Shown piece by piece: positions 30,316-43,071 of a stretch of DNA of 43,071 nt; the first letter of the stretch is position 1; each line of letters begins with the position of its first letter. The notes beneath the pieces are model-generated. The model saw nothing but the letters and a program-made list of their open reading frames with translations, was not told the DNA's origin and did not search any database. The stretch covers positions 1 to 43,071 of the forward strand of contig CACYHL010000003.1 in the NCBI GenBank assembly GCA_902774205.1, written 5' to 3'. This DNA is from an uncultured Bacteroidota bacterium. Its GTDB lineage: Bacteria > Bacteroidota > Bacteroidia > Bacteroidales > WCHB1-69. A program made the translations under genes and the position numbers.

Positions 30316-30938
30316 CTATTTTTCCCGTTTCCTGTATTTCTGATTTCTGTCATTGCGTTTATCTGGAATGGTCATTTCCAAAACGCCCATATCCACAAGA
30401 GTTTGGATGAGTCTTTTGCGATTGACAGACTGATTGGATAGTCCCAATCTGGCTAAAATCTCTTGTGCAGACCTCGGAACAGAACAGAAATTCACAATAT
30501 CCTTTTGTGTCTTTGTCAATGCAGGTTTACGAACTTTTTCTTGGTTACTTTCTTGGTTACTTTCTTGGTTACTTCCTTTCATTTCCAGTAAGGCCTGTTT
30601 CAAGCATTGTAGCATAAATGTTATGAAAGCAGTGCTGTTGGCTTCCGAGTCGCTCTTGGCGATGGCGGCATAGTACTCCTGTTGGTGTTCTTTGACAATG
30701 GTTTCTACTGGAATCCATGCAAAGACAGGCTTCCATTGCATCAGCAAGAGTGTTTGCCACATACGTCCCATTCGTCCATTCCCGTCGGCAAAGGGATGGA
30801 TGAATTCAAATTCATTCCCTTGCGCAGATGTGGGGATGGCAGTTCTGTTGTTGTGGCTGTCAAAAGCCCAACTTGCTCAGCAGTCTCTGCAACCAAAGAT
30901 GTTATTTCGTCTGTTATCGTGAATGGCGGTATATACAT
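30316..30938 (-). pseudogene. Fic/DOC-family gene remnant (internal deletion plus frame change)
   Basis: The N-terminal frame gives MYIPPFTITDEITSLVAETAEQVGLL...SPHLRKG. Only a different frame gives NEFEFIHPFADGNGRMGRMWQTLLL... plus a C-terminal wHTH-like tail. The segment normally lying between the LRK and FIHPF regions is absent. Confidence 0.7.
30541..30576 (-). repeat. 12-nt tandem repeat x3 inside the Fic remnant
   Basis: ttggttactttc / ttggttactttc / ttggttacttcc, encoding (SNQE)3 on the minus strand. Confidence 0.9.
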
Positions 30939-31864: not shown

Positions 31865-33217
31865 TTATACCTCTGACAAGAGGAACATCATATAGAACGG
31901 CAACGTCAGTAGTTGTCCGTTGCGACCGACATTGTAATTGCCGAATTTCAAGGCTTGACGGACATGGTAATGTTCAGGATGCTTGAGTACGGTTTGCATA
32001 GACTTTGCATTTCCTGACCGGGCCTTACATTCCAACGGATAGCATTCTCCCTTGTATCGAGTGAGGAAGTCGAGTTCCAGTCCGCCCTCCTTCTGAAAGT
32101 AGTACAACTTCCGTCCCATTTTGCACAAGATGTCTGCGGCAAGATTTTCAAAAATTGCACCTTTGTAGCCAAAAAGGTTCCCCTGCAAGATACTCCAAGC
32201 CGTACCCTCTTCCAACATACTGACCAACAGGCCAATATCCGTCATATAGACTTTAAAGATATCGGGGATGGCATTGCCGTCGAGAGGCAATTCTGTGATG
32301 GCGACGTTGTGGCACCGGTGGATGATGCCGGCATCCTCAATCCATTGCAGACTTCCGGCATACTGACTTGAACGCCCTCCCCTGCGTATCACGGAGTATT
32401 GAAACTTCTTGTTCTCTTTGGCCAACTGTGCGGGTATGGAATCAAAGCATTCGCGTATGCGGGGCTTGTCCTCCTGACGGGCATACTTCAGCATGTCTGC
32501 CTTATAGGTTTCGATAATGCCGTGTTGCACATCCGACACATCGTTCATATTGTTGGTTTCAAGAAAAGTGCTGACAGCCTCAGGCATTCCGCCCACTACC
32601 ACATAGCGCAGCAACAACTCACACATTCTCTGGTGAATGCCCTCATTGACCGGTGTTTCGTTCTCCAGACAGTTGCGCAGATAGTCGATGTGCTGCTGCT
32701 CAATGCCGTTAGCCCACAGCCACTCCTCGAAGTCCATTGGGTACATTGTGACGATCTGCTCAAATCCAACGGGGACGGATGCCTGTTCCTCTTCCTCTTG
32801 TTCCTCCTTGCTGCGGTAGCCGTTGACTCCCAGCAGAGAGCCCGTGCAAATGACATCATAGCGCCCGTCGAGCTTGAAGAACTTCAACGATGCGCGAGCA
32901 TTGGGGCATTCCTGTATCTCGTCAAGTACCAGACATGTCTCGCCCGCTACGAACCGTGCACCTCGTATGCCTGCTGAGATGGCCAATGTCAATGTATCCA
33001 CGTCAAGTGCTCCGGCAAAGAATGACTTGTATTCCTTGTGCTCGTGGAAGTCCATACAGACAACATACTTGTAGTTCCTGTGGGCAAAATCCAGAACCGA
33101 GCTGGTTTTCCCGCACTGGCGACATCCTTTTATCACCAGCGGTTTATGCCCTTTCTTGTTTTTCCACTGGCTTAAAACCTTCTCTATTTTTCGTTTATAC
33201 ATAGCCATTGTTCCCAT
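31865..33217 (-). CDS. AAA-type ATPase (AAA_14 / DUF4143-like architecture)
   Basis: Walker A-like GCRQCGKTS, Walker B-like CLVLDEIQ, and a C-terminal region resembling the DUF4143 nuclease-like fold. Start is ambiguous among M1, M4 and M6. Confidence 0.65.
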   Translation of the reverse strand: MGTMAMYKRKIEKVLSQWKNKKGHKPLVIKGCRQCGKTSSVLDFAHRNYKYVVCMDFHEHKEYKSFFAGALDVDTLTLAISAGIRGARFVAGETCLVLDEIQECPNARASLKFFKLDGRYDVICTGSLLGVNGYRSKEEQEEEEQASVPVGFEQIVTMYPMDFEEWLWANGIEQQHIDYLRNCLENETPVNEGIHQRMCELLLRYVVVGGMPEAVSTFLETNNMNDVSDVQHGIIETYKADMLKYARQEDKPRIRECFDSIPAQLAKENKKFQYSVIRRGGRSSQYAGSLQWIEDAGIIHRCHNVAITELPLDGNAIPDIFKVYMTDIGLLVSMLEEGTAWSILQGNLFGYKGAIFENLAADILCKMGRKLYYFQKEGGLELDFLTRYKGECYPLECKARSGNAKSMQTVLKHPEHYHVRQALKFGNYNVGRNGQLLTLPFYMMFLLSEV

Positions 33218-33407: not shown

Positions 33408-34658
33408 TCACCCCAACGGCTGGCAACGCTCTTTGCGCACCACACGGTCGCGCATAAGACGAGGGTCGGAAATGTTGCGGGCGATATTGCAAATGAGATC
33501 AAAATAATTATCCTTGCCGTCTTTATCCCTGTAGTAATAGGGCTTGATGGAAACACAATTCTTATGCTCAAAGAGTGTTTTCAGAAGTGTACGGTCAGAG
33601 ATGCCACAGGAGAGCCCCATTATACAAACTTGATATGGCCCTAGCTCAATGAACCCAAGCATTTTTCGGTAATTGGAGGACTCCAAATAGCGGAAAGATT
33701 TGATGTGGCGCAAATACTCGTTATTATTTTTCTTCATCAATGGTTGATATTCATCGTCATGCTCATCTCCATAACCAAAAATCACACTTTGAGGATTTGA
33801 CAGAGAACCATGAATGTGATTGACTGAAAACAAATCATTGGTTTGCAAATAGATATCTGCCGTATTCGTATAATTGAAGTTTAGCAGCATAATTTTGTCT
33901 GGAAGCCGATATGCGGGACAACTCTTTCCTATATATTCATCTCTGAAATCGCCATAACGAATAGCAACTTCGAATTCATGTTTAAAGCTTTTAATAGAAT
34001 TGGTAGAATAACTTGAGCCCCCTAAAATTGCATTATACGCAGCAAAGAGGTGTTCCCACTGATCATCATTGTAATCCAACCGCTCTTTCATCATATCCTT
34101 CCATTGATCCATTGAACCAATGGCGATGTCGTCTGGAGAGATCGGTGATAAAATTTTCCATTTTATACTGGGAATAACAATGCTATCAGTTATTTCCTTT
34201 TGTATCTCTGACAAATACTCTATCAGATTGGACTTGACAATATCCAATTCCTTATTGACATCTTTAGCAGGGCGGGGTATGCTGTCATGACGTTTCAAAT
34301 GTTTGTAATAAATCTCCTCTATGTCAACCCAACCTTTTGCCTCAATATTCAGACATATTTCGTGAAACATTGGAGTAAACTCCATTGAAAAACTGTTGGT
34401 ATTTTTCCTAATCTCCTCAACAATTGCTTTGCCATCAATTTTTGAATACGATGAAATACAACTATACGCCCAAACACTCCAATAAATCGATTCATTATTG
34501 ATTTTAAAAGAACAAAGTCCATCATCGGATATATTACTTAAAAGACCTCTGAATCCATAGACACGCTTTGTCCAATACCACTTGATGAAGTCTTCATAAC
34601 CCGTTTTCAAGTCATGTGCCAAGTCAAAACCGTTGCCGATGAGGATGATTCTGTTCAT
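33408..34658 (-). CDS. abiH: AbiH-family abortive-infection protein
   Basis: N-terminus MNRIILIGNGFDLAHDLKTGYEDFIKWYW is the characteristic AbiH signature, and 416 aa fits the family. The start codon is 2 nt from the hsdM stop. Confidence 0.75.
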   Translation of the reverse strand: MNRIILIGNGFDLAHDLKTGYEDFIKWYWTKRVYGFRGLLSNISDDGLCSFKINNESIYWSVWAYSCISSYSKIDGKAIVEEIRKNTNSFSMEFTPMFHEICLNIEAKGWVDIEEIYYKHLKRHDSIPRPAKDVNKELDIVKSNLIEYLSEIQKEITDSIVIPSIKWKILSPISPDDIAIGSMDQWKDMMKERLDYNDDQWEHLFAAYNAILGGSSYSTNSIKSFKHEFEVAIRYGDFRDEYIGKSCPAYRLPDKIMLLNFNYTNTADIYLQTNDLFSVNHIHGSLSNPQSVIFGYGDEHDDEYQPLMKKNNNEYLRHIKSFRYLESSNYRKMLGFIELGPYQVCIMGLSCGISDRTLLKTLFEHKNCVSIKPYYYRDKDGKDNYFDLICNIARNISDPRLMRDRVVRKERCQPLG

Positions 34659-34660
34659 TG

Positions 34661-36307
34661 CTATTCCTCAAACTTCAATTTTCCCAACTGCTCCAGAATC
34701 TCTCCCTCCAATTCGTGGCTCTCTGAGAACATTTCCGATAGTTTCTTCTTATGTTCTGCCATCCTGGAATTGAATTCTTCGGCAGTGATGTCCACGTATT
34801 CGATTTTGATGTCGAAGTACTGACCGGCTGAAAGCGAATATTTTTTGTCCTTTATTTCTTTGAAAGTGACCACTTTCGAGAAATCGTCCACCTCTTTCTG
34901 TTGCTTGAACGTATCGATGATTTGTTCTATTTCAAAGTCGCGTAGGACAGTTTTCTGGTTGTTGTCTATCTTGACTTTCTCGCCGAGTTTGGAAGCGTCA
35001 ATCAGGATCACATTACCATCCTTGTTTGCTTTGTCGATGAAGATAACACTAACATTGGTGCCGGTGTTGGCAAAGATATTGGAGGGCATAGAAACGACAC
35101 CTCGCAACCATCCTTCGTCAATGATGCGTTGTTTGATTTTCAGCGGAATACCGCTGCCGGCGGTTAAGAACCCGGTCGGCACCACCACCGCCGCCTTGCC
35201 GGTCGATTTCAGGATGTAGAGGATGTGCTGGAGGAAGCACTGATAGATGGCCATACTGTCCTTCTTTTTGTTAGGAATGTTTGGAACTCCTGCAAAGAAG
35301 CGGTCAGTGTTTTGGAAGGCTTTGTGCGTCACACTCTCGCTGAAATCCACATTGAATGGCGGATTACTCACCACATAGTCGAACTGTCCCATCATCTCAC
35401 CGTTTTTGCCGGCGTGGCCCCAGCTGATGAGCGAATCGCCTTGCACCACGTTGGGCAATGAATGCACCAGATTGTTTAAAATCAGATTCAACCGCAACAT
35501 CGTGGTGCTCTTCTGGCTTTGGTCCTGGCTGTAGATGGTGCAGCGGTCTTCGCCAATTTGGTGGGCCAAGGCCATCAACAGCGTGCCGGTACCGGCGGAC
35601 GGGTCGCAGCAGGTGATGCTTTTCAGCTCTTCCTTTTGATCCACCAACAGACGGGCCATCACAGTGGCCACGGCGTGCGGGGTGAAATACTCCGCATATT
35701 TGCCGCCTCCGTTTTTGTTGTAGTCGGCAATCAGATACTCGAACACGGTGGCGAAGAAATCGTATTTCTGGTCGAATACCTCCTCAAAGTTGAAGGTGAT
35801 AAGCTTGTTCACCAGCGCTTTCGCGAAGTCGTCGCGTTTATCCACATCGGTGACATTGGTGGTGATGGCTTCGAACAGAGCCACATTGCTCTTGCCAGAG
35901 GTTTTGATACTGTAACGGTCGGCATTGGCCTGTCCCAGCGACACCATCGTGTCGTCAAAGGTGCCAGCGAAGCCGTCTTCCGCCATACGGTTATAGAGGG
36001 AAGCTATCAGAAACTCGGGCTTCATCCGCGGAGCTTCAGGCACAAAATCCTGCAGGTCTTCGCGTTCCGCATCCGTCAGTGCCTTGTAGGCGTCTTCCCA
36101 GTGCTCGGCATTGCGCAATCTGTCGCGGTAATCCGTGTCGGCACGTTTCACTTCGTAGCCGAATTTGTCGTTCAAGTATTTGTACAGGAACACTTGTACG
36201 ATGATTTTGTACTCGCTACTGTCGCCCGACAACCCGTAGGCGGAGCAGGTGGCGCGAAGGGCGTCAATCAACGCCTCGGTCTTTTCTATATGCTGTTTTG
36301 TATCCAT
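34661..36307 (-). CDS. hsdM: type I restriction-modification system methyltransferase subunit
   Basis: HsdM N-domain style start, AdoMet motif CDPSAGTGTLL and catalytic VVSNPPFNVDF, in a 548-aa protein. Confidence 0.9.
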   Translation of the reverse strand: MDTKQHIEKTEALIDALRATCSAYGLSGDSSEYKIIVQVFLYKYLNDKFGYEVKRADTDYRDRLRNAEHWEDAYKALTDAEREDLQDFVPEAPRMKPEFLIASLYNRMAEDGFAGTFDDTMVSLGQANADRYSIKTSGKSNVALFEAITTNVTDVDKRDDFAKALVNKLITFNFEEVFDQKYDFFATVFEYLIADYNKNGGGKYAEYFTPHAVATVMARLLVDQKEELKSITCCDPSAGTGTLLMALAHQIGEDRCTIYSQDQSQKSTTMLRLNLILNNLVHSLPNVVQGDSLISWGHAGKNGEMMGQFDYVVSNPPFNVDFSESVTHKAFQNTDRFFAGVPNIPNKKKDSMAIYQCFLQHILYILKSTGKAAVVVPTGFLTAGSGIPLKIKQRIIDEGWLRGVVSMPSNIFANTGTNVSVIFIDKANKDGNVILIDASKLGEKVKIDNNQKTVLRDFEIEQIIDTFKQQKEVDDFSKVVTFKEIKDKKYSLSAGQYFDIKIEYVDITAEEFNSRMAEHKKKLSEMFSESHELEGEILEQLGKLKFEE

Positions 36308-36334: not shown

Positions 36335-37420
36335 TCAATGTATTTTTCGAGATTCGTCGTTTTTGAATTTGTACATTCCGGTTTCGTGGGAAATGCGACC
36401 CAGAACTATCCATTTGTGCAAATTGTTCTCTTCTGCCCACTGGCTATATTTTTTTTCTATCAGCCAAGGTTTGTTGAGCTGCACTTGAGGAATGGTAGTG
36501 GATTTCCAAAGCTTTTCGGGAATAAGGTGGTTGCAAGCAAACGTATTGGCCTCTTGTTCTTCTTTTGTGTCCTCCATCAGATTGATAAACCTCTTTTCGG
36601 TTTCTGAAACATGAAGCTTTAAATGACCGATTTCATGCATCACAGCGAAAGCAAAATTGTCTATTCTGTCATATCGCTTGGTTACAACGATGGAAGGGAT
36701 TCCATCTGTGTCTAAGAATGAATAGCCATCGATGCTCGCCTTATCGACTTTTTCCACAATGCAAAACCTTATACCATTATCTGACAATATTTTTTTGGTG
36801 CTTTCAATGACATCTTCATTTTTATTAAAAACATCTGCCAATTGTTGTATATAATCATTCTTTTCAGGGTTGTACACCTGAGTGGTTTGCTGTTGACGTG
36901 CAGCATACTGGGCAAGGACTTCCCAAGTGAATATAGCCCGCTGATCCGTACCTGACTTCTCAGATTTGCGGAATTTGCCCAAATTATATTTCAGCTCAGC
37001 AGGTTTGGGCAAAAGCAATTGGTGGACAACAAAATTCAATTTTTCGACACACGAAGCAAAGGCAACACCAACTCGCTTGAATATCAAATTGATGTTAATC
37101 ATTTCGTCATACTCGTTTAATAACAATTGTGCTTTTTGTTCCTTGATACTGCGTTTTTTTATGACTTCACAGTCATACTCGTATTCGGCTTGCAACTTCA
37201 TCCAGAATTTCGCATTGATGCCGAGCTCCCGTTCGAGGTCGTCGGCAACTTTCGGGGAAATGGCACGCTTGCCCTTTATGAGCTCGCTCAAATGGGTGGC
37301 TTGCATACCAATGGCTTTGGCAAAATCCTTTTGCTTGATGTTGCGCGCTTCAAGTTCGGCTTTAATGGTCGCTCCGGGCGCGACTGCCATAAAGGGTACT
37401 ATTTTATTTTTTTCTTCCAT
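36335..37420 (-). CDS. HigA-like XRE HTH fused to an ImmA/IrrE (M78, COG2856) zinc metallopeptidase domain
   Basis: N-terminal HTH (IKQKDFAKAIGMQATHLSELIKGKRAISPKVADDLERELGINAKFWMKLQ) and C-terminal HExxH (AVMHEIGHLKLH). It overlaps the upstream toxin-like gene by 17 nt. Confidence 0.75.
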   Translation of the reverse strand: MEEKNKIVPFMAVAPGATIKAELEARNIKQKDFAKAIGMQATHLSELIKGKRAISPKVADDLERELGINAKFWMKLQAEYEYDCEVIKKRSIKEQKAQLLLNEYDEMININLIFKRVGVAFASCVEKLNFVVHQLLLPKPAELKYNLGKFRKSEKSGTDQRAIFTWEVLAQYAARQQQTTQVYNPEKNDYIQQLADVFNKNEDVIESTKKILSDNGIRFCIVEKVDKASIDGYSFLDTDGIPSIVVTKRYDRIDNFAFAVMHEIGHLKLHVSETEKRFINLMEDTKEEQEANTFACNHLIPEKLWKSTTIPQVQLNKPWLIEKKYSQWAEENNLHKWIVLGRISHETGMYKFKNDESRKIH

Positions 37421-37727
37421 AATGGGATTCGTTTATTTCTAACAATAATATTCTAATGCCTTCGTCAAATTCTTCGAATATTAACCGTTCTACTCGACCA
37501 TTTTGTATCCTTACGGAGCTTTGTCCAGACCGATCGAATTTGAGTTTCTCATAGTGTAAAGAGCTGAATTGTTTCAATTCTTCTGTGTTTTCCACCGATA
37601 ACAAACGATTGTAAACCGACACTAATGCTGCGCAGAAGACTTTATCTTTAGATAGTTTCTTATATTTATTGTTTTTTCCATACTCTATTAATTCTTGTAA
37701 GTCAATATCCGCAAAATCAACAATCAT
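37404..37727 (-). CDS. HigB-like (plasmid maintenance system killer / RelE-fold) toxin
   Basis: ~107 aa with LHYEKLKFDRSGQSSVRIQNGRVERLIFEE, resembling the HigB L.G...G.ySiRin..wRlvF block, and it precedes a HigA-type HTH. Start is set at 37727 because a -7 box covers the ATG at 37751. Confidence 0.6.
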   Translation of the reverse strand: MIVDFADIDLQELIEYGKNNKYKKLSKDKVFCAALVSVYNRLLSVENTEELKQFSSLHYEKLKFDRSGQSSVRIQNGRVERLIFEEFDEGIRILLLEINESHYGRKK

Positions 37728-37748
37728 AATGTGATATTTTTGAGAGTG

Positions 37749-37756
37749 CAAAAATA
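37749..37756 (-). promoter_or_regulatory. -7 promoter box (TATTTTTG) for higB-like / XRE-peptidase / hsdM / abiH
   Basis: Reverse complement of caaaaata matches TAnnTTTG, about 22 nt upstream of the ATG at 37727. Confidence 0.35.
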
Positions 37757-37764
37757 CAAAAAAA

Positions 37765-37781
37765 TTACCATATCATGGTAA
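37765..37781 (-). promoter_or_regulatory. perfect 7-3-7 palindrome TTACCAT-ATC-ATGGTAA (operator and/or terminator hairpin)
   Basis: Seen directly. On the minus strand the hairpin is followed by a T7 run, which makes it terminator-like for the DUF2971 gene. It also sits just upstream of the -7 box of the HTH-encoding operon. Confidence 0.55.
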
Positions 37782-37811
37782 CTTTTTTATTTTTTCTCTA
37801 CATCACTCCGT

Positions 37812-38588
37812 TCATATCACCTCCGCCTGCAGCCGGAAGGCATTGCCGTCCACACGCATTTGGTAAAGTTTGATTTCCGGATTCAGCTTCTTGCGGGCAT
37901 ATTTGATTATTTTTTCTTTTTCAGTCGGATCTGTGTTCACACCAAAGTATATCGACTCAAAACATTCGCCCTTCAGCGGCATATAATGGTGAACCTCTTT
38001 CCAATCCATAACTTCATTGCTTTTGGAGCGTTCGGCTTGTTCGGGTGTTAAGGCCGCGTACATAGGACCCGGCTTGGGCATGACCAACCTGACCTCCTGT
38101 TCATACGCCCATTCTTTTGCTTTAGTACGCCATTGATAACTGAAAATATCCTCTGCACTATGATAAGCATTGGGGCGTTCAATTATATCCTGATATTGAA
38201 CCTCTAAAATAAACGGTTCAAGATACAGGGAACCGAACATAGGAGGAACAGATTTCATCACTTTGTCCATGTCCAGCCCGATGCAAACGCCTTTGTGGTT
38301 ATAGCAATAGTGACTCCACATCAGTATTGAATCATTGATTTTCGATAAACTGCAGAGCCAGGTATCGTTGCGCAAATTGAGGGCATCGAGTTCTTCTTTC
38401 TCAATCCACCAATCCTCTGGTATCCAACCTTGCAATCTTGAGGCGGGCACATTCGAGTAGTCTATCAATTTGGGATGACAATCGAAAGGGTCATTTAGCT
38501 GGGAGGCATTGGTGAATTGGAGATCTTGGTTCCCAATCATGCATTTAGCTCCGACAATGTCCAAATATTTGTAGAGAATGCGGGACAT
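37812..38588 (-). CDS. DUF2971-family protein
   Basis: MSRILYKYLD..., LQFTNASQLNDPFDC, WLCSLSKINDSILMWSHYCYNHKGVCIGLD and KEWAYEQEVRL follow the DUF2971 motif series (LYKY / NDPFE / MWSHYA..HKG / W.yE.E.R). Confidence 0.7.
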   Translation of the reverse strand: MSRILYKYLDIVGAKCMIGNQDLQFTNASQLNDPFDCHPKLIDYSNVPASRLQGWIPEDWWIEKEELDALNLRNDTWLCSLSKINDSILMWSHYCYNHKGVCIGLDMDKVMKSVPPMFGSLYLEPFILEVQYQDIIERPNAYHSAEDIFSYQWRTKAKEWAYEQEVRLVMPKPGPMYAALTPEQAERSKSNEVMDWKEVHHYMPLKGECFESIYFGVNTDPTEKEKIIKYARKKLNPEIKLYQMRVDGNAFRLQAEVI

Positions 38589-38644
38589 ACTTATTCTATC
38601 GTTACTTGACCGTTCCTCAACAACACATTGCTGAAATTAGACGT

Positions 38645-39517
38645 TTAGTCCTCGCCATAATAAACTTTTTTTGCCTTTTCTACAAGAGGAACAAAAACAT
38701 CTTTATGTTTCTTGAATTCATCATGATTAGGGAAAGAGATTTTATAAACATTATCACTTGAAATATAAGAGACATCCAACCCTGTATTTTCTATTTTTTG
38801 AGTTGTCTCCTCATCTTCGGGAAGTTTTATAAATAAGAATACAAAATTCTTTCGAGGTCTAAAGTAAATAAAGTTTTTTGCAACTCCATCTTTTGCTATC
38901 CCGATATAAAACTTATTGAACTTCAATTCAAAATCACCTATTATTTCTTTAAGTTCAGTAAAAATACTATCTACTGTTTTTATGATTTTTGGGGTACTAG
39001 ACTTTTCCCAGTAATTTCTATCAGTAACCTCTGCAGTTTCAAAGTCAGCATCATTAGCTAAAGAAATTCTGTCTAAGACTTTTGTGAAAATAAGTTCAAC
39101 ATCATCTCCGTGTTTGATGGCAGACATTTGCAAGGCAATTAACGGTATTGCTCCATTAAAAAGGGAAATGACATTCATAAATCTGCCCGTTATTTCTTCA
39201 GCAACAATAACAGCGCAATGGTTATATTGGGGATAGCGTTTTTTCTCGGTATCCCAATACTCTAAAGTGCGAATGATGTGGCTTGGATCGGTACTGCCGA
39301 GCTGAATTTCGACTTCATATCTTTCCACACCGTCCTGATCTGAAAGTAGAATATCCAGAATTCCTCCCATGGGCTGCCTCTTTTCTCGTTGGATTGGAAT
39401 TAAGTTTCCCAAGCCAAGCACAGAAGGGTCTGTAAAAATAAACTCCTGTATTGATTTTTCATTGATTTCAGGATGGTTTTTAAGCAATATCTTCTCGCTC
39501 TTTACTAATTTAGCCAT
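38645..39517 (-). CDS. PD-(D/E)XK-like (NucS/DUF91-style) N-domain protein with an uncharacterised C-domain
   Basis: The pattern QREKRQPMGGILDILLSDQDGVERYEVEIQLGSTDPSHIIRTLEYW resembles E...GxxDxL..D..G....vE.K....a....v.Q...Y, with Q in the usual K position. The C-half has a YIGIAKDG..NFIYFRPRKNFVFLFIKL pattern. The gene is very AT-rich. Confidence 0.5.
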   Translation of the reverse strand: MAKLVKSEKILLKNHPEINEKSIQEFIFTDPSVLGLGNLIPIQREKRQPMGGILDILLSDQDGVERYEVEIQLGSTDPSHIIRTLEYWDTEKKRYPQYNHCAVIVAEEITGRFMNVISLFNGAIPLIALQMSAIKHGDDVELIFTKVLDRISLANDADFETAEVTDRNYWEKSSTPKIIKTVDSIFTELKEIIGDFELKFNKFYIGIAKDGVAKNFIYFRPRKNFVFLFIKLPEDEETTQKIENTGLDVSYISSDNVYKISFPNHDEFKKHKDVFVPLVEKAKKVYYGED

Positions 39518-39552: not shown

Positions 39553-40763
39553 TTATTCTTCTATCTCAACTTGCCCGTTCATCAGCATCGGCAACAGCGA
39601 ATCTCGAAGGCGGGTGAGGTGATTCTTCTCATCTGTTACTTGTTTTTGTTTTTCTCTAAAAGCATTGGTAATATTGCAATAGGTTTCTATCAATTTATCA
39701 GGAGGAAACGCAACTATATAGGACATCAAGTTTTCCTGATTAATTTTCTTTTGAATAGAACCCGTTTCAATTAACACCACAGGTATTGTCTTCAATAAGA
39801 AATAGCAGTACTCTAACCATTTTTTATTATTCAATGTGATAATATGAGCGTGATTATTCACCCAATTTTTACCCCAAATATATTGAACAACGGGATTGCC
39901 ATTTTCATCGGACGTTGATCCGTCTTCTGCCAACAGCAAATAATCCCCATCAAATATGTATTCATCTACATAATCCATAATACCCGTAGCTCCATAATAT
40001 GGGAATGGTCCTTTTTTATTTTCTCTTTCCTTATTTGATAATGGTATCCGTCGATAGTCTTCTAAAATTAGAATATTACTTAATTCTTTCACTTCCCACC
40101 CCTCCGGAATCTCTCTCTTCAGTTTTTCGTTCCACACCATCTTTCCCCCGGAGGATTTGTAGGGCTTGCCGTTTTCATCGGGCTTGCCCTGAGCAAAGTC
40201 GAAGGGGAAATCGAACTGCACGAACCAATAGTCGTAGAGCTGCTTGGCCATCGCCTCCAACTCGGCGTTCATGCGGGTGTTGAGGGAGATCTTTTGGTCA
40301 ATATCAAATAATAGATTCCCAATTTTCTCTTGTTCAGAAATACTTGGGAGTATGAATTCAAAATCTCCAAGTTGTTCTAAACTTATATGAGGTATTGATG
40401 TGCCAGTATGTATTGTTTTGATATACTGCTCAAATCTATCGCTAAAGATAGCATAATACAAGTATTTTTGGATAGATTTTTCGTTATGTCGCACACATGC
40501 AACACGTTGAGCAAGGTAAAGCGGCAAATCACTTTCAGATACGATTGCTCTATTTCTCCCTACACGCGAACCATCCATTCCTATAACAATATCTTCATTT
40601 CTTTAAATGGATAATTCCACCTTTTATCAATATCCCATCTAAGATTACCGATGGTAACATTATCTCCTCTTACAACTCTAATTCCTTCTGATGAGTATTT
40701 GTGTCCATCAAAAGGGAAACCAGCTATAAGAGATGCGACTTCATTCAATTTACATTTCTTCAT
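39553..40763 (-). pseudogene. hsdS: type I R-M specificity subunit, split by a single frameshift
   Basis: The 60-aa N-fragment (MKKCKLNEVASLIAGFPFDG...) ends at a TAG at 40581. The -1 frame continues ...RNEDIVIGMDGSRVGRNRAIVSESDLPLYLAQRVACVR. A central conserved helix (AELEAMAKQLYDYWFVQFDFP) and C-terminal LRDSLLPMLMNGQVEI are present. The combined length of about 400 aa is typical of HsdS. Confidence 0.8.
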
Positions 40764-40766
40764 CTC

Positions 40767-43071
40767 TTATCTCAAAACATTATATTCCCTTAAATACTCT
40801 CCGGCGATGAGGTTGGATATGTAGCGGCGGTCGTCGGGCTGGGCCTTCACGTCAATGTCCCTCAATGCCGTTGCCACGGCGTAGATGACCTGCGCGTTGA
40901 AATCGGCCTCGTTGCAGATCAATTGCTCGCGGTTCATGATCAGCAGGTCGATGGCATCCTTCACATTGTTCAGCGCCCTGCACTGCTCCACCTCCTGTGG
41001 CGACAGCAGCGTTTTGCCGCTTTCCTGCTCGTGGCTGCGTATGCGCTTGTGCGCCCGCACAAATTTCACATCGCCACGGTATTTCTTCTGCAAATTGGCA
41101 TTGCGGCGGTTAATCTCCCGAATGCGCTCCATTGCCATATCCATAAAACCGATATCCTCTTTGGCGTCGGCCATGCTGCCCACCTCGAAATTGCGCTTGG
41201 CAAAATGCTCCTGTATCAACTGCATCAGCGAGATGTATTCCTCATCATCCTGGTCAATGCAAGCCTGCATTTCATTGCTCAAAGCTTTCCGTTTCTGGCG
41301 CATCTCGTCTTTGATGTCGGTGCCTATCTCCAACTCGTTTTCGCCCCGCTTGCGGAACCGGAAGTCAATGGTGGCCAATGCCTCGTTAATCATACTGCTC
41401 ACCTCGGCCTCGTGGCTAAACATGCTTTTCAGATTCAGGTTGTCGATGCGTGCATTCACCACCTTCAGCAGGTTCTGCAAGTCGCCGGGGTTCATCTCCT
41501 GTGCCAAATCTTTCAGTTCCGGGCTTCCGAATGTGCGCACCTCGTTCCACACCGCTTTCGCCTCCTCCAAACGATGGCGGATCTGTATCAACTTATCACG
41601 GTCTTCAATCTCCTCCATCTCCTGCGAGAACAGTTCGGCATTTGAAGGCGTGTAATCGAACAGCACCTCCTGAACATTCGCCATAATCTCCCTCACTTCG
41701 TGAGGCGTTACCAGCACCGTTTCGGTCATTGTCTTCCCCTCTTCGCCAGTGCCAAACTGGTTCAGCTCTCTGGCGTAGGCATCGTTAATCTGGTCGAAAT
41801 TGTCCTGTATGTCGGCAAAATCCACCACATAGCCGAACTGCATCTGCTTGTAGGGGCGGTTCACACGGGTCAATGCCTGTAACAGATTGTGGTCTTTCAG
41901 CTTACGGCCCAAATAAAGCCGTTTCAGACGGTGGGCGTCAAAACCCGTCAGCAGCATATTGTTGACGATGAGCAGGTCGGGGTGGTTTTTCTTTCGGAAC
42001 CGGTAGCAAATGCCCTTTCTCGTCTCTTTGTCGTAAAAATCGTGAAGGATAAGTTCCGCGGAAATATCGTGATGCTGCCACGGAGTTTGCTCAAGGTCAT
42101 CTTCGGGGATTTGCGCATCTGGTTCAGGCATATAGCTTCCGTCGGGTCCCGGCCCCATCTTCAGCAGGCGGAACATCATCCGCGCCTGCGGGTTGGTTTC
42201 GCATACAATGATGCCACCTAACGAGTTGTCGGCCTGCTGGATACGCCAGCGTTTGAAATCGGCGATGATATAGTCGAGCAAGGCGCCCACATAACGCGGA
42301 TTTTCCAATATCCGCTCGCGTCGCACATCTTCCCGTTTTACCTGTATGGTCTCCTTGAGCTGCTCCCATACCTCCTGCAGTCGCAGCCGGTAGGAGGTCT
42401 CGATGTCTTCGCGGAGTATTTTCTTTGTAAAACCGTCCTCAATACTGCGGTTATAGTAGTAGGTGCTGATATAGTCGCCAAACACATCGCGGCTTTTCAC
42501 CTCGTCGCCAATAAGCGGAGTTCCGGTAAGTGCAATATGAATGGCTTTCGGGTCGCTTTCGAACAGCCGCGCGAGGAAAGAGCCTTGCGGATTATAGTCG
42601 CGATGGGCTTCGTCAAGGAAGTAGATGCGCTGGATGTTGACGGCATAGTCCGGGATATTCACATTGCCATCACTGTCTTTCAGTTTCTGGATATTCACCA
42701 CGATGATTTCGGGTTTGCCCTCGTTGCCCTGTTGTGCCGTGGTGGTTTGGAAGGTCTTCATCAGCTCGTCGCGCGAATCCACATTAATGACCTTCAACCC
42801 ACGATTGGAGAATTCAATGGTGGCCTGTTCCATCAGATCGAGACGATCGACAAAGAAGTAATATTTGGGCACGATGCCCTTGTTCTTGTAATAGTCGGTC
42901 AGCACGCGGGAGGCGAAATAGGACAGGGCCGTTTTGCCCGAGCCCTGCGTGTGCCAGATGATGCCGCTGCGCACTCCTTCGCTAAGTTTTTGGCGGATGG
43001 CCTGCGTGCCGAACACCTGCGGATAGCGCATCACGTGTTTCTCCAAAACCGCTTTGTTGGTATCTTCGTCG
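40767..43071 (-). CDS. hsdR: type I restriction enzyme R subunit, N-terminal part beyond the window
   Basis: Helicase motifs WHTQGSGKTALS, YFLDEAHRDY and ALTGTPL, with a long C-terminal helical domain. The frame stays open to the right edge (…DEDTNKAVLEKHVMRYPQ). The stop is 3 nt from the hsdS start. Confidence 0.9.
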   Translation of the reverse strand, partial: DEDTNKAVLEKHVMRYPQVFGTQAIRQKLSEGVRSGIIWHTQGSGKTALSYFASRVLTDYYKNKGIVPKYYFFVDRLDLMEQATIEFSNRGLKVINVDSRDELMKTFQTTTAQQGNEGKPEIIVVNIQKLKDSDGNVNIPDYAVNIQRIYFLDEAHRDYNPQGSFLARLFESDPKAIHIALTGTPLIGDEVKSRDVFGDYISTYYYNRSIEDGFTKKILREDIETSYRLRLQEVWEQLKETIQVKREDVRRERILENPRYVGALLDYIIADFKRWRIQQADNSLGGIIVCETNPQARMMFRLLKMGPGPDGSYMPEPDAQIPEDDLEQTPWQHHDISAELILHDFYDKETRKGICYRFRKKNHPDLLIVNNMLLTGFDAHRLKRLYLGRKLKDHNLLQALTRVNRPYKQMQFGYVVDFADIQDNFDQINDAYARELNQFGTGEEGKTMTETVLVTPHEVREIMANVQEVLFDYTPSNAELFSQEMEEIEDRDKLIQIRHRLEEAKAVWNEVRTFGSPELKDLAQEMNPGDLQNLLKVVNARIDNLNLKSMFSHEAEVSSMINEALATIDFRFRKRGENELEIGTDIKDEMRQKRKALSNEMQACIDQDDEEYISLMQLIQEHFAKRNFEVGSMADAKEDIGFMDMAMERIREINRRNANLQKKYRGDVKFVRAHKRIRSHEQESGKTLLSPQEVEQCRALNNVKDAIDLLIMNREQLICNEADFNAQVIYAVATALRDIDVKAQPDDRRYISNLIAGEYLREYNVLR

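Follow-up and report, generated by a model that had tools for sequence, protein, structure and literature searches.

A NucS-like gene and a DUF2971 gene as probable separate accessory modules at a variable position of a type I restriction-modification operon in Bacteroidales

Do two genes that lie side by side in a defence locus act as one system, or did each arrive there on its own? The question is raised by a 43,071-nucleotide (nt) stretch of DNA from an uncultured Bacteroidota bacterium (Bacteroidales, WCHB1-69; GenBank assembly GCA_902774205.1, contig CACYHL010000003.1), hereafter the window, in which a type I restriction-modification (R-M) operon carries two co-directional genes, here termed A and B, behind its specificity gene hsdS. 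An earlier note on this DNA had put them forward as a defence pair, and its account of their sizes (290 and 258 amino acids, aa), spacing and order is correct: the genes lie 56 nt apart, with the start of A 35 nt past the hsdS stop. Both are real genes, with more than 7,000 scored homologues for A (E-values down to 1e-186) and more than 1,300 for B (1e-162). We conclude, with a probability of roughly 60%, that each is an accessory module of a single gene, unrelated to the other, and that the two are stacked at one variable slot within a type I R-M operon of Bacteroidales; that they are embedded defence cargo is plausible, and a two-gene system is not supported. The two genes are:

39517..38645, minus strand: gene A, 290 aa (open reading frame, homologues and AlphaFold model)
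38588..37812, minus strand: gene B, 258 aa (DUF2971, PF11185; PADLOC PDC-S31; phrog_1762)

The neighbourhoods of the two families were surveyed separately. For A, a survey with a 76-sequence alignment, at one genome per species, kept the best 80 of at least 588 matches, which, at 48-69% identity, come from many phyla of Bacteria, from candidate phyla radiation (CPR) lineages and from Methanobrevibacter; 73 loci were counted, the other 7 of the 80 being without an intact A open reading frame (ORF). For B, metagenomes were scanned with the B alignment, and the gene was called in 76 of the best 80 of at least 512 matches (47-80% identity). Genes in the fetched loci were called with a crude, greedy longest-ORF heuristic, and B and the hsd genes were detected by phmmer with the window proteins, a procedure that divergent versions could escape. 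B was found in none of the 73 A loci, and A in none of the 76 metagenomic B loci, each examined in its entirety. No conserved partner of A emerged from all-against-all clustering within 6 kb, where the largest cluster, of ABC transporters, covered 8 of the 73 loci; type I genes were found in only a handful of the 73. Among the 139 immediate neighbours of A, which fall into 161 Pfam families, DUF2971 is absent from the 25 top families listed (each with at least two members). The proposal of a defence pair thus fails on the very co-occurrence that the earlier note had named as its test.

The closest relatives of each gene can also be followed locus by locus. An A gene 84% identical to that of the window lies beside B and in the same direction in hsdR-hsdS-A-B-hsdM-abiH loci (L001-L004). 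A further A gene (82% identity) stands behind a different type I system, in the order hsdM-hsdS-hsdR-A and with no DUF2971 gene (L186-L188), another (71%) lies 3' of a DEAD helicase and a Schlafen-type (SLFN) helicase (L189-L191), and a third (69%) is solitary among fructan-utilisation genes (L005-L008). Conversely, a B gene of 76% identity comes straight after hsdS in hsdR-hsdS-B-hsdM-abiH loci that have no A (L009-L012). A related locus reads hsdR-hsdS-B-different small gene pair-hsdM-abiH (L013), and yet another reads hsdR-hsdS-B-TA-hsdM-abiH (L158), which is the window order minus A, TA denoting a toxin-antitoxin-like cassette. A, B and the TA cassette are mutually independent, and the locus corrects a tempting misreading: adjacency within a defence locus does not amount to a system. 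A recurrent pairing of DUF2971 with a PD-(D/E)XK nuclease was also considered for a Sphingomonas aerolata plasmid (L095:4058-6165) and rejected; the nuclease there is a PDDEXK_4 protein with no similarity to A (E = 1.3), and its resemblance to the window pair is coincidental or convergent.

How the present order arose can be read from the junctions around A and B, for which the following features are needed:

38591..38622, minus strand: relic of the hsdS 3' end in the A-B spacer, VLLRNGQVTIE and stop in frame (alignment to the hsdS end)
37756..37790, minus strand: AT-rich hairpin with A-run and T-run flanks, followed by a TAnnTTTG-type -7 element (direct folding)
36335..37751, minus strand: TA-like cassette of a 115-aa and a 361-aa gene, a separate insertion between B and hsdM

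In three relatives (L009, L158 and L013) the hsdS stop codon directly abuts the ATG of B (MNGQVTIE, stop, ATG). In the window, the spacer relic and the real hsdS end (39553-39588) are identical at 26 of 32 nt, an alignment score that none of 2000 shuffles equalled, and the same relic is present in the A-B spacer of L001. Because an hsdS relic lies between A and B, A must have entered by recombination, together with the present hsdS allele, in front of an hsdS 3' end that was already there. On the other side of B, about 8 nt separate its stop from the hsdM start in L001 and L009, and the hairpin is absent there. The hairpin, the TAnnTTTG-type element and the TA genes are common to the window and to L158, in which TA is present and A absent; the element is taken to be a -7 element by comparison of the sequence with the consensus. 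The hairpin folds at -18.2 kcal/mol (z = -4.85), and none of 200 shuffles folds as well; a consensus terminator scan did not report it, and its stem is poor in G-C. Since it was inherited with the TA genes and is absent from L001 and L009, the hairpin is the edge of the TA cassette. The earlier note had seen a hairpin and T-run closing the pair: the structure stands, and its reading as the end of a pair does not.

Alignment of the window with L001, L009 and L158 at these junctions shows two separate insertions, one of A and one of the TA cassette, into an ancestral, tightly packed hsdS-B-hsdM arrangement. B would then be the older, conserved resident of the operon slot, and A a later addition that came together with the current hsdS allele. 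Across the loci the slot between hsdS and hsdM is variable and gains and loses cassettes, hsdR-hsdS-(A)-(B)-(TA)-hsdM-abiH, where parentheses mark what comes and goes. Of the suggested horizontally acquired defence pair, what remains is shuffled defence-type cargo in a type I R-M operon, without the pair.

Further cargo is seen where A follows the other type I system. In L186-L188, A is followed by a gene of 191 or 206 aa, and L187 also has a 50-aa AbiH fragment; the 191-aa gene gives a weak TIR_2 match (1.3e-4). A 206-aa gene also lies 3' of abiH in L001 and L009 and may be the same gene as in L186-L188. Different type I systems seem to occupy one and the same place in the chromosome (L186-L188 against L001 and L009), and if the 206-aa genes are the same, this site would be a defence hotspot that exchanges whole R-M cassettes.

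What, then, is B likely to do? It matches Pfam DUF2971 (PF11185) with 39.3 bits against a cut-off of 22, over residues 90-168, which upholds its first assignment to this family, and it matches phrog_1762, a phage family of unknown function, at 7.8e-43. Five PADLOC models of the PDC-S31 family also match (best 1.2e-34, another 1.7e-28). The AlphaFold model of B, built on an alignment that is shallow in diversity, has a predicted local distance difference test (pLDDT) of 84.2 and a predicted template modelling (TM) score of 0.82. When the PDB was searched by fold, the top six matches were all DarT and no other match exceeded a probability of 0.2; DarT supplied the only matches at a probability of at least 0.4. 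Sequence searches of the PDB with single proteins and with profiles of A and B gave nothing useful. DUF2971 has been classed bioinformatically as an ADP-ribosyltransferase of the HYE clade, near DarT and AbiGi, with a conserved tyrosine and an ExE motif (PMC12522546). Both hallmarks are present in B, as Y94 within MWSHY and as E163-Q-E165:

38094..38102, minus strand: codons of the ExE motif E163-Q-E165, catalytic motif III of ADP-ribosyltransferases in DUF2971 according to PMC12522546

The equivalence of catalytic residues to those of DarT, as to those of NucS below, was drawn from motif position and secondary structure. The invariant residues of B are N32-D33-P34, M90-W91-x-H93-Y94, H98-x-G100 and W160-x-Y162-E163-x-E165-x-R167, and they hold in plasmid homologues of 23-30% identity. 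A third homologue search, with a five-sequence DUF2971 profile, returned mostly the same close clade and three new distant sequences.

The B family is strongly linked to type I R-M. Its 142 immediate neighbours include Methylase_S (31), N6_Mtase/HsdM_N (10) and integrase-type recombinases (7), with GmrSD, RAMA and TIR also represented, and at least 19 of the 33 B loci that have at least 3 kb on either side carry a type I gene within 4 kb, window versions serving as probes. Type I operons of the B clade come in three architectures (R-S-B-M-AbiH, M-x-S-B, and small HTH-B-M-x-S-R, HTH standing for helix-turn-helix), and B is a conserved embedded member of this operon family. In the clade of 50-53% identity (L160-L174, e.g. 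L160:1652-1870), a 67-73-aa HTH_3 protein lies directly upstream of B in an HTH-B-hsdM-x-hsdS-hsdR operon and could be a C-protein-like controller or an antitoxin for B. Many of the loci L098-L130 carry several hsdS genes in both orientations and a tyrosine recombinase, which points to B standing right after the expressed hsdS in phase-variable hsdS shufflons; the integrase-type neighbours of B are taken as belonging to such shufflons.

B-type genes are also found by themselves. The temperate Bacteroides phage BS-TP3 carries a solitary, 50%-identical DUF2971 gene (L185:5887-6747) between DUF4886 and lysophospholipase-like genes, a few kb upstream of its holin/endolysin genes; this DUF2971 gene may be a superinfection-exclusion moron. 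More distant DUF2971 genes are solitary on enterobacterial, Vibrio and Sphingomonas plasmids.

The literature places B closer to named systems than had been supposed. The view of DUF2971 as a wholly uncharacterised, unnamed family is out of date, given Aristaios (PMC11381338) and the ADP-ribosyltransferase prediction (PMC12522546), and the statement that neither gene matches a named system fails for B, which matches the PADLOC candidate PDC-S31 and shares the Aristaios domain. Aristaios, a validated abortive-infection system of lactococci, consists of one gene, whose DUF2971 product disturbs transcription of the phage (PMC11381338, PMC13064643). Like B, it has the DUF2971 domain, a predicted ADP-ribosyltransferase-like fold and no partner gene, a likeness drawn from the shared Pfam domain; unlike B, it is 316 aa long, plasmid-borne in Lactococcus and outside any R-M operon. 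No Lactococcus appears among the matches listed or the top-ten organisms when B is compared with plasmids by tblastn (E <= 1e-3).

Payne et al. (bioRxiv 10.1101/2024.01.29.577857) defined the PDC candidates through their location inside BREX, DISARM and type I R-M loci. PDC-S31 agrees with B both in the profile match and in being a single gene embedded in type I R-M, as B is between hsdS and hsdM; it is a prediction without a phenotype, and the R-S-B-M-AbiH operon and the three architectures go beyond the catalogue entry. In the literature covered, which includes part of the supplement tables of Payne et al., we found no mention of PDC-S31 or PDC-S18. DarT is the only family of solved structure that resembles the B model, B has an ExE-type acidic motif, and PMC12522546 likewise links DUF2971 to DarT; however, the structural resemblance is weak, B has no sequence-level match to DarT and no adjacent DarG macrodomain antitoxin, and its chain is extended by large helical inserts and by additional sequence at the C-terminal end.

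Judged by its family, fold, motifs and genomic context, and by analogy with these systems, B is most likely an autonomous, Aristaios-like effector with DarT-like transferase activity. It would work alone, as an effector of the abortive-infection type, and on sensing infection would transfer ADP-ribose from NAD+ to nucleic acid or to a protein that belongs to the gene-expression machinery; co-expressed with the R-M enzyme, it would provide a second line of defence.

Gene A is of a different kind. Its AlphaFold model (pLDDT 94.4) has two domains, within the first of which lie the residues of a presumed active site:

residues ~1-150 of gene A, minus strand: NucS-like PD-(D/E)XK domain (model and Foldseek)
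residues ~165-290 of gene A, minus strand: double-wing domain resembling DUF5655 and the MotA C-terminal domain (model and Foldseek)
39302..39316, minus strand: codons of E68-V-E70-I-Q72, the ExQ form of the ExK motif on predicted strand beta3 (model)
39353-39355, minus strand: partner aspartate D55 (alignment)

The fold search (Foldseek) that had been suggested led from A to NucS and the MotA C-terminal domain, and from B, weakly, to DarT. For A, the N-terminal domain matches the catalytic domain of NucS/EndoMS (2vld, E = 1.5e-6; 5gke, 1.5e-5), with 19-27% identity over 103-114 columns (27% over 103 for 2vld) and a root-mean-square deviation (rmsd) of 2.5-4.1 Å. The NucS-style fold first suggested for A is thereby confirmed in structure, and in sequence it stays below the curated thresholds (Pfam NucS_C, 16.3 bits against 24; NCBIfam NF003270, 20 against 216). 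The second domain matches that of T4 MotA (1kaf and 5jlt; target-normalised TM-score, TMt, 0.51-0.64), and YjbR-like proteins match as well. In a viral structure library the best match is Gp54 of Bacillus phage G, over the full length (E = 1.5e-13), followed by a DUF5655 protein, MotA and RecB-family nucleases.

The EVEIQ sequence, in which glutamine had been seen to replace the usual lysine, occupies residues 68-72 of A. Of the 76 family members at least 90% keep D55, E70 and Q72, and all keep R83, W88 and E107, within the consensus GGRLD55...RY-E68-V-E70-I-Q72-LG-x-T-D77-x-S-H80-IIR83-TIE86-YWD89...AVIVAE107. Because Q72 is kept in at least 90% of these members, its presence at the ExK lysine position is a fixed trait of the family and not decay. 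BglII is a working PD-(D/E)XK nuclease with ExQ, and by this analogy nuclease activity of A is plausible; we infer that the invariant R83, or H80, may stand in for the catalytic lysine.

The A family comprises 1697 clusters at 50% identity (E <= 1e-3), or 406 at E <= 1e-30, and none of Pfam, NCBIfam, PHROGs and PADLOC has a model for it; the window protein passes no curated model, and weak Pfam matches among the 76 members are to DUF5655 (12 of 76) and NucS_C (5 of 76). The PADLOC profiles PDC-S18 and PDC-S11 match window A at 7.2e-5 and 1.7e-3 and 11 and 16 of its 76 relatives (best 8e-9 and 5e-7), and the profile match is colinear, A residues 103-244 aligning with positions 125-266 of a 307-position model. 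This similarity indicates that A is probably distant kin of the single-gene candidates PDC-S11/PDC-S18 and not a member. Gp54 of phage G matches A over its full length, whereas the PDC-S11 and PDC-S18 matches fall far below membership level. With the PD-(D/E)XK superfamily A shares the core fold and the conserved D55 and E70, with Q72 at the lysine position; with NucS/EndoMS it shares the fold of the nuclease domain but differs in having this domain first, with no NucS N-terminal domain and a DUF5655/MotA-like domain instead, and in having ExQ where NucS has ExK.

Proximity to defence genes, which had been proposed as a test for both genes, is frequent for B; for A, restriction genes occur within 6 kb in at least 14 of the 73 loci (hsdR 6, MmeI-type 4, Mrr 3 and hsdM 3, overlapping), often directly upstream and on the same strand. 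The other recurrent neighbours of A are ordinary (ABC transporters, response regulators, redox enzymes), the exception being a Fic cluster in 3 loci. A tblastn search of phage genomes gave no match to A, and 2.9 million viral contigs yielded only 7 loci. A is most likely a self-contained DNA nuclease acting on foreign or abnormal DNA, for which a defence role is moderately supported: it would be a free-standing enzyme whose DUF5655/MotA-like domain selects the substrate and whose D-ExQ site cuts it, attacking invading or abnormal DNA alone, in the manner of a solitary restriction nuclease.

The remainder of the locus is laid out as follows:

43071..40767, minus strand: hsdR, running off the window end (Pfam SWI2_SNF2, ResIII, T1R_D3-like)
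40763..39553, minus strand: hsdS, specificity subunit (Pfam Methylase_S)
37751..37404, minus strand: 115-aa toxin-like gene (phrog_3066, 'toxin of TA system', 2.9e-5)
37420..36335, minus strand: 361-aa HTH_3 + Peptidase_M78 gene (Pfam; PADLOC PD-Lambda-2_B, 2.5e-44; HigA TIGR02607)
36307..34661, minus strand: hsdM (Pfam N6_Mtase, 1.2e-65)
34658..33408, minus strand: abiH (Pfam AbiH, 8.2e-26)
33217..31865, minus strand: AAA_14/DUF4143 ATPase (PADLOC candidate PDC-S01, 9e-153)

Matches in Pfam, PADLOC and NCBIfam bear out the position of A and B inside an R-M locus, by AbiH and a TA-like pair. The extreme AT-richness that the earlier note ascribed to the two genes is found in A (34.6% GC) and not in B (44.4%, equal to the window mean); hsdS, the toxin-like gene and abiH are AT-rich too. 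Genes hsdM and abiH form a conserved 3' half of the operon, their order being kept in L001, L009, L013 and L158. Truncation or disruption of hsdR was considered and rejected: the reading frame is open up to the window end, and the full-length protein has 1055 aa in relatives. In the hsdS gene a 1-nt frameshift within 40581-40610 separates a 60-aa ORF from a 341-aa ORF that lies in another frame; from position 40599 the hsdS genes of relatives follow the second of these frames, and the canonical EDIVIGMDGS motif continues across the apparent stop. Either a pseudogene or a sequencing error would account for this, and the frameshift, if true, would leave the type I enzyme without an intact specificity subunit.

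Within the TA-like cassette, the two genes resemble the first two of the three-gene PD-lambda-2 system (PD-Lambda-2_B, 2.5e-44), whose toxic part is the HTH-peptidase (PMC9519451); the third component, P4 antitoxin-like, is absent here. Beyond abiH, the AAA_14/DUF4143 ATPase is by its PDC-S01 match a further catalogued single-gene defence candidate in the island. A 151-aa minus-strand ORF at 30316-30771 with a SNQE-SNQE-SNQE repeat has as its sole match a Fic-like C-terminal domain (1.8e-8), and is apparently what is left of the Fic gene found 3' of abiH in L009 and L013.

How firmly can A and B be held to be two independent accessory modules? That they need each other, as a sensor or nuclease and its effector in one two-gene system, is suggested by the window and L001-L004, where they are adjacent and co-directional, 52-56 nt apart, in the same operon. 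This explanation is nevertheless very improbable: the reciprocal co-occurrence is nil, the closest relatives of each gene are found without the other (82%-identical A in L186-L188, 76%-identical B in L009-L012), the A-B spacer is a recombination scar, B is solitary in a phage and on plasmids, PADLOC treats both related families as single-gene candidates, and the nuclease beside DUF2971 on the Sphingomonas plasmid is a PDDEXK_4 protein unrelated to A. Accessory defence genes embedded in type I R-M are an established pattern (bioRxiv 10.1101/2024.01.29.577857; TgvAB, PMC11411939), and the PrrC/Rlo genes and TgvAB resemble the window locus in that an extra effector gene is nested between hsd genes and co-expressed, but PrrC (an ABC-ATPase anticodon nuclease) and TgvAB (GmrSD-like) are proteins unrelated to A and B, and PrrC is not among the five PADLOC matches of B (E <= 0.01). 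B shares with a PrrC-type guard its embedding in a type I operon, and control of B or A by the R-M enzyme would be an analogy. B might still be a PrrC-like sentinel, silenced by the HsdMS/R complex or by its regulation until a phage anti-restriction protein disables the enzyme and sets B free to act as a suicide toxin that ADP-ribosylates its target. The B clade does sit inside type I operons in three architectures, the hsdS stop abuts the B start in relatives, no antitoxin gene lies by B, and with PrrC a toxin nested in a type I R-M locus is already on record (PMC3874168). We nonetheless think this unlikely, as a 50%-identical B is solitary in a Bacteroides phage, no type I gene was detected within 4 kb in 14 of the 33 B loci that are well flanked, distant plasmid DUF2971 genes are solitary and Aristaios acts as a single gene.

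For A, the question is whether it is immune at all. It may instead be a nuclease that serves in the repair or maintenance of DNA, or a selfish solitary gene for a nuclease that simply ends up in R-M loci, which recombine readily, as might be read from its very high conservation across Bacteria and Archaea, the lack of recurrent restriction genes in most sampled neighbourhoods (several neighbours being ordinary metabolic or transport genes), the repair function of NucS/EndoMS, its nearest solved fold, its arrival here through recombination and its near-absence from phage records. Set against this are its patchy occurrence, its repeated position at the 3' end of restriction or helicase defence operons, its kinship to the embedding-derived candidates PDC-S11 and PDC-S18 and the missing NucS N-terminal domain, and we regard a non-immune A as a possibility of some weight, though not the likelier one. 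A more ambitious combination would tie the DUF2971 proteins of Bacteroidales specifically to type I enzymes: analogous to PrrC but ADP-ribosylating, they would be translated together with HsdS, stay inactive while the enzyme is intact and fire when phage anti-restriction proteins neutralise it, and A would stand for a large unmodelled NucS-like D-ExQ family of solitary restriction factors appended to R-M operons. This combination strikes us as doubtful. Several points weigh against two independent defence modules. A rare or very divergent DUF2971 gene beside A could have escaped, given the crude ORF calls, the window protein as the sole B probe and the top 25 of 161 families listed. The similarity of B to DarT is weak (TM 0.35-0.44, E-values of 7.7e-3 to 6.7e-2, rmsd above 9 Å), and no macrodomain match was found beside B, where the neighbours are hsdS, A, the HigB-like/HTH-M78 pair and hsdM. 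With glutamine in place of the catalytic lysine, A might bind DNA and leave it uncut; about four-fifths of the sampled A loci are without a recurrent restriction-gene cluster within 6 kb, and the conservation of A, 50-60% identity between phyla and also in Archaea, is higher than is usual among defence genes. With hsdS frameshifted, this strain may have an operon that works only in part, and the enzymatic activities, triggers and anti-phage effect of A and B are ones that we infer.

Nothing in this reading of A and B as separate modules is categorically new, B being a member of a catalogued candidate family and A belonging to an unmodelled sister family of catalogued candidates. The gains are that the pair is rejected, that scars of cassette exchange are visible and that two experimental targets are defined. 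The A family is widespread, folds confidently and has no model in the family databases searched. The B clade is an abundant DUF2971 clade of gut Bacteroidales and could reveal an ADP-ribosylation-based backup to restriction. The locus as a whole shows how defence cassettes of one gene each can dock independently in a type I R-M operon, with the scars of their docking still visible.

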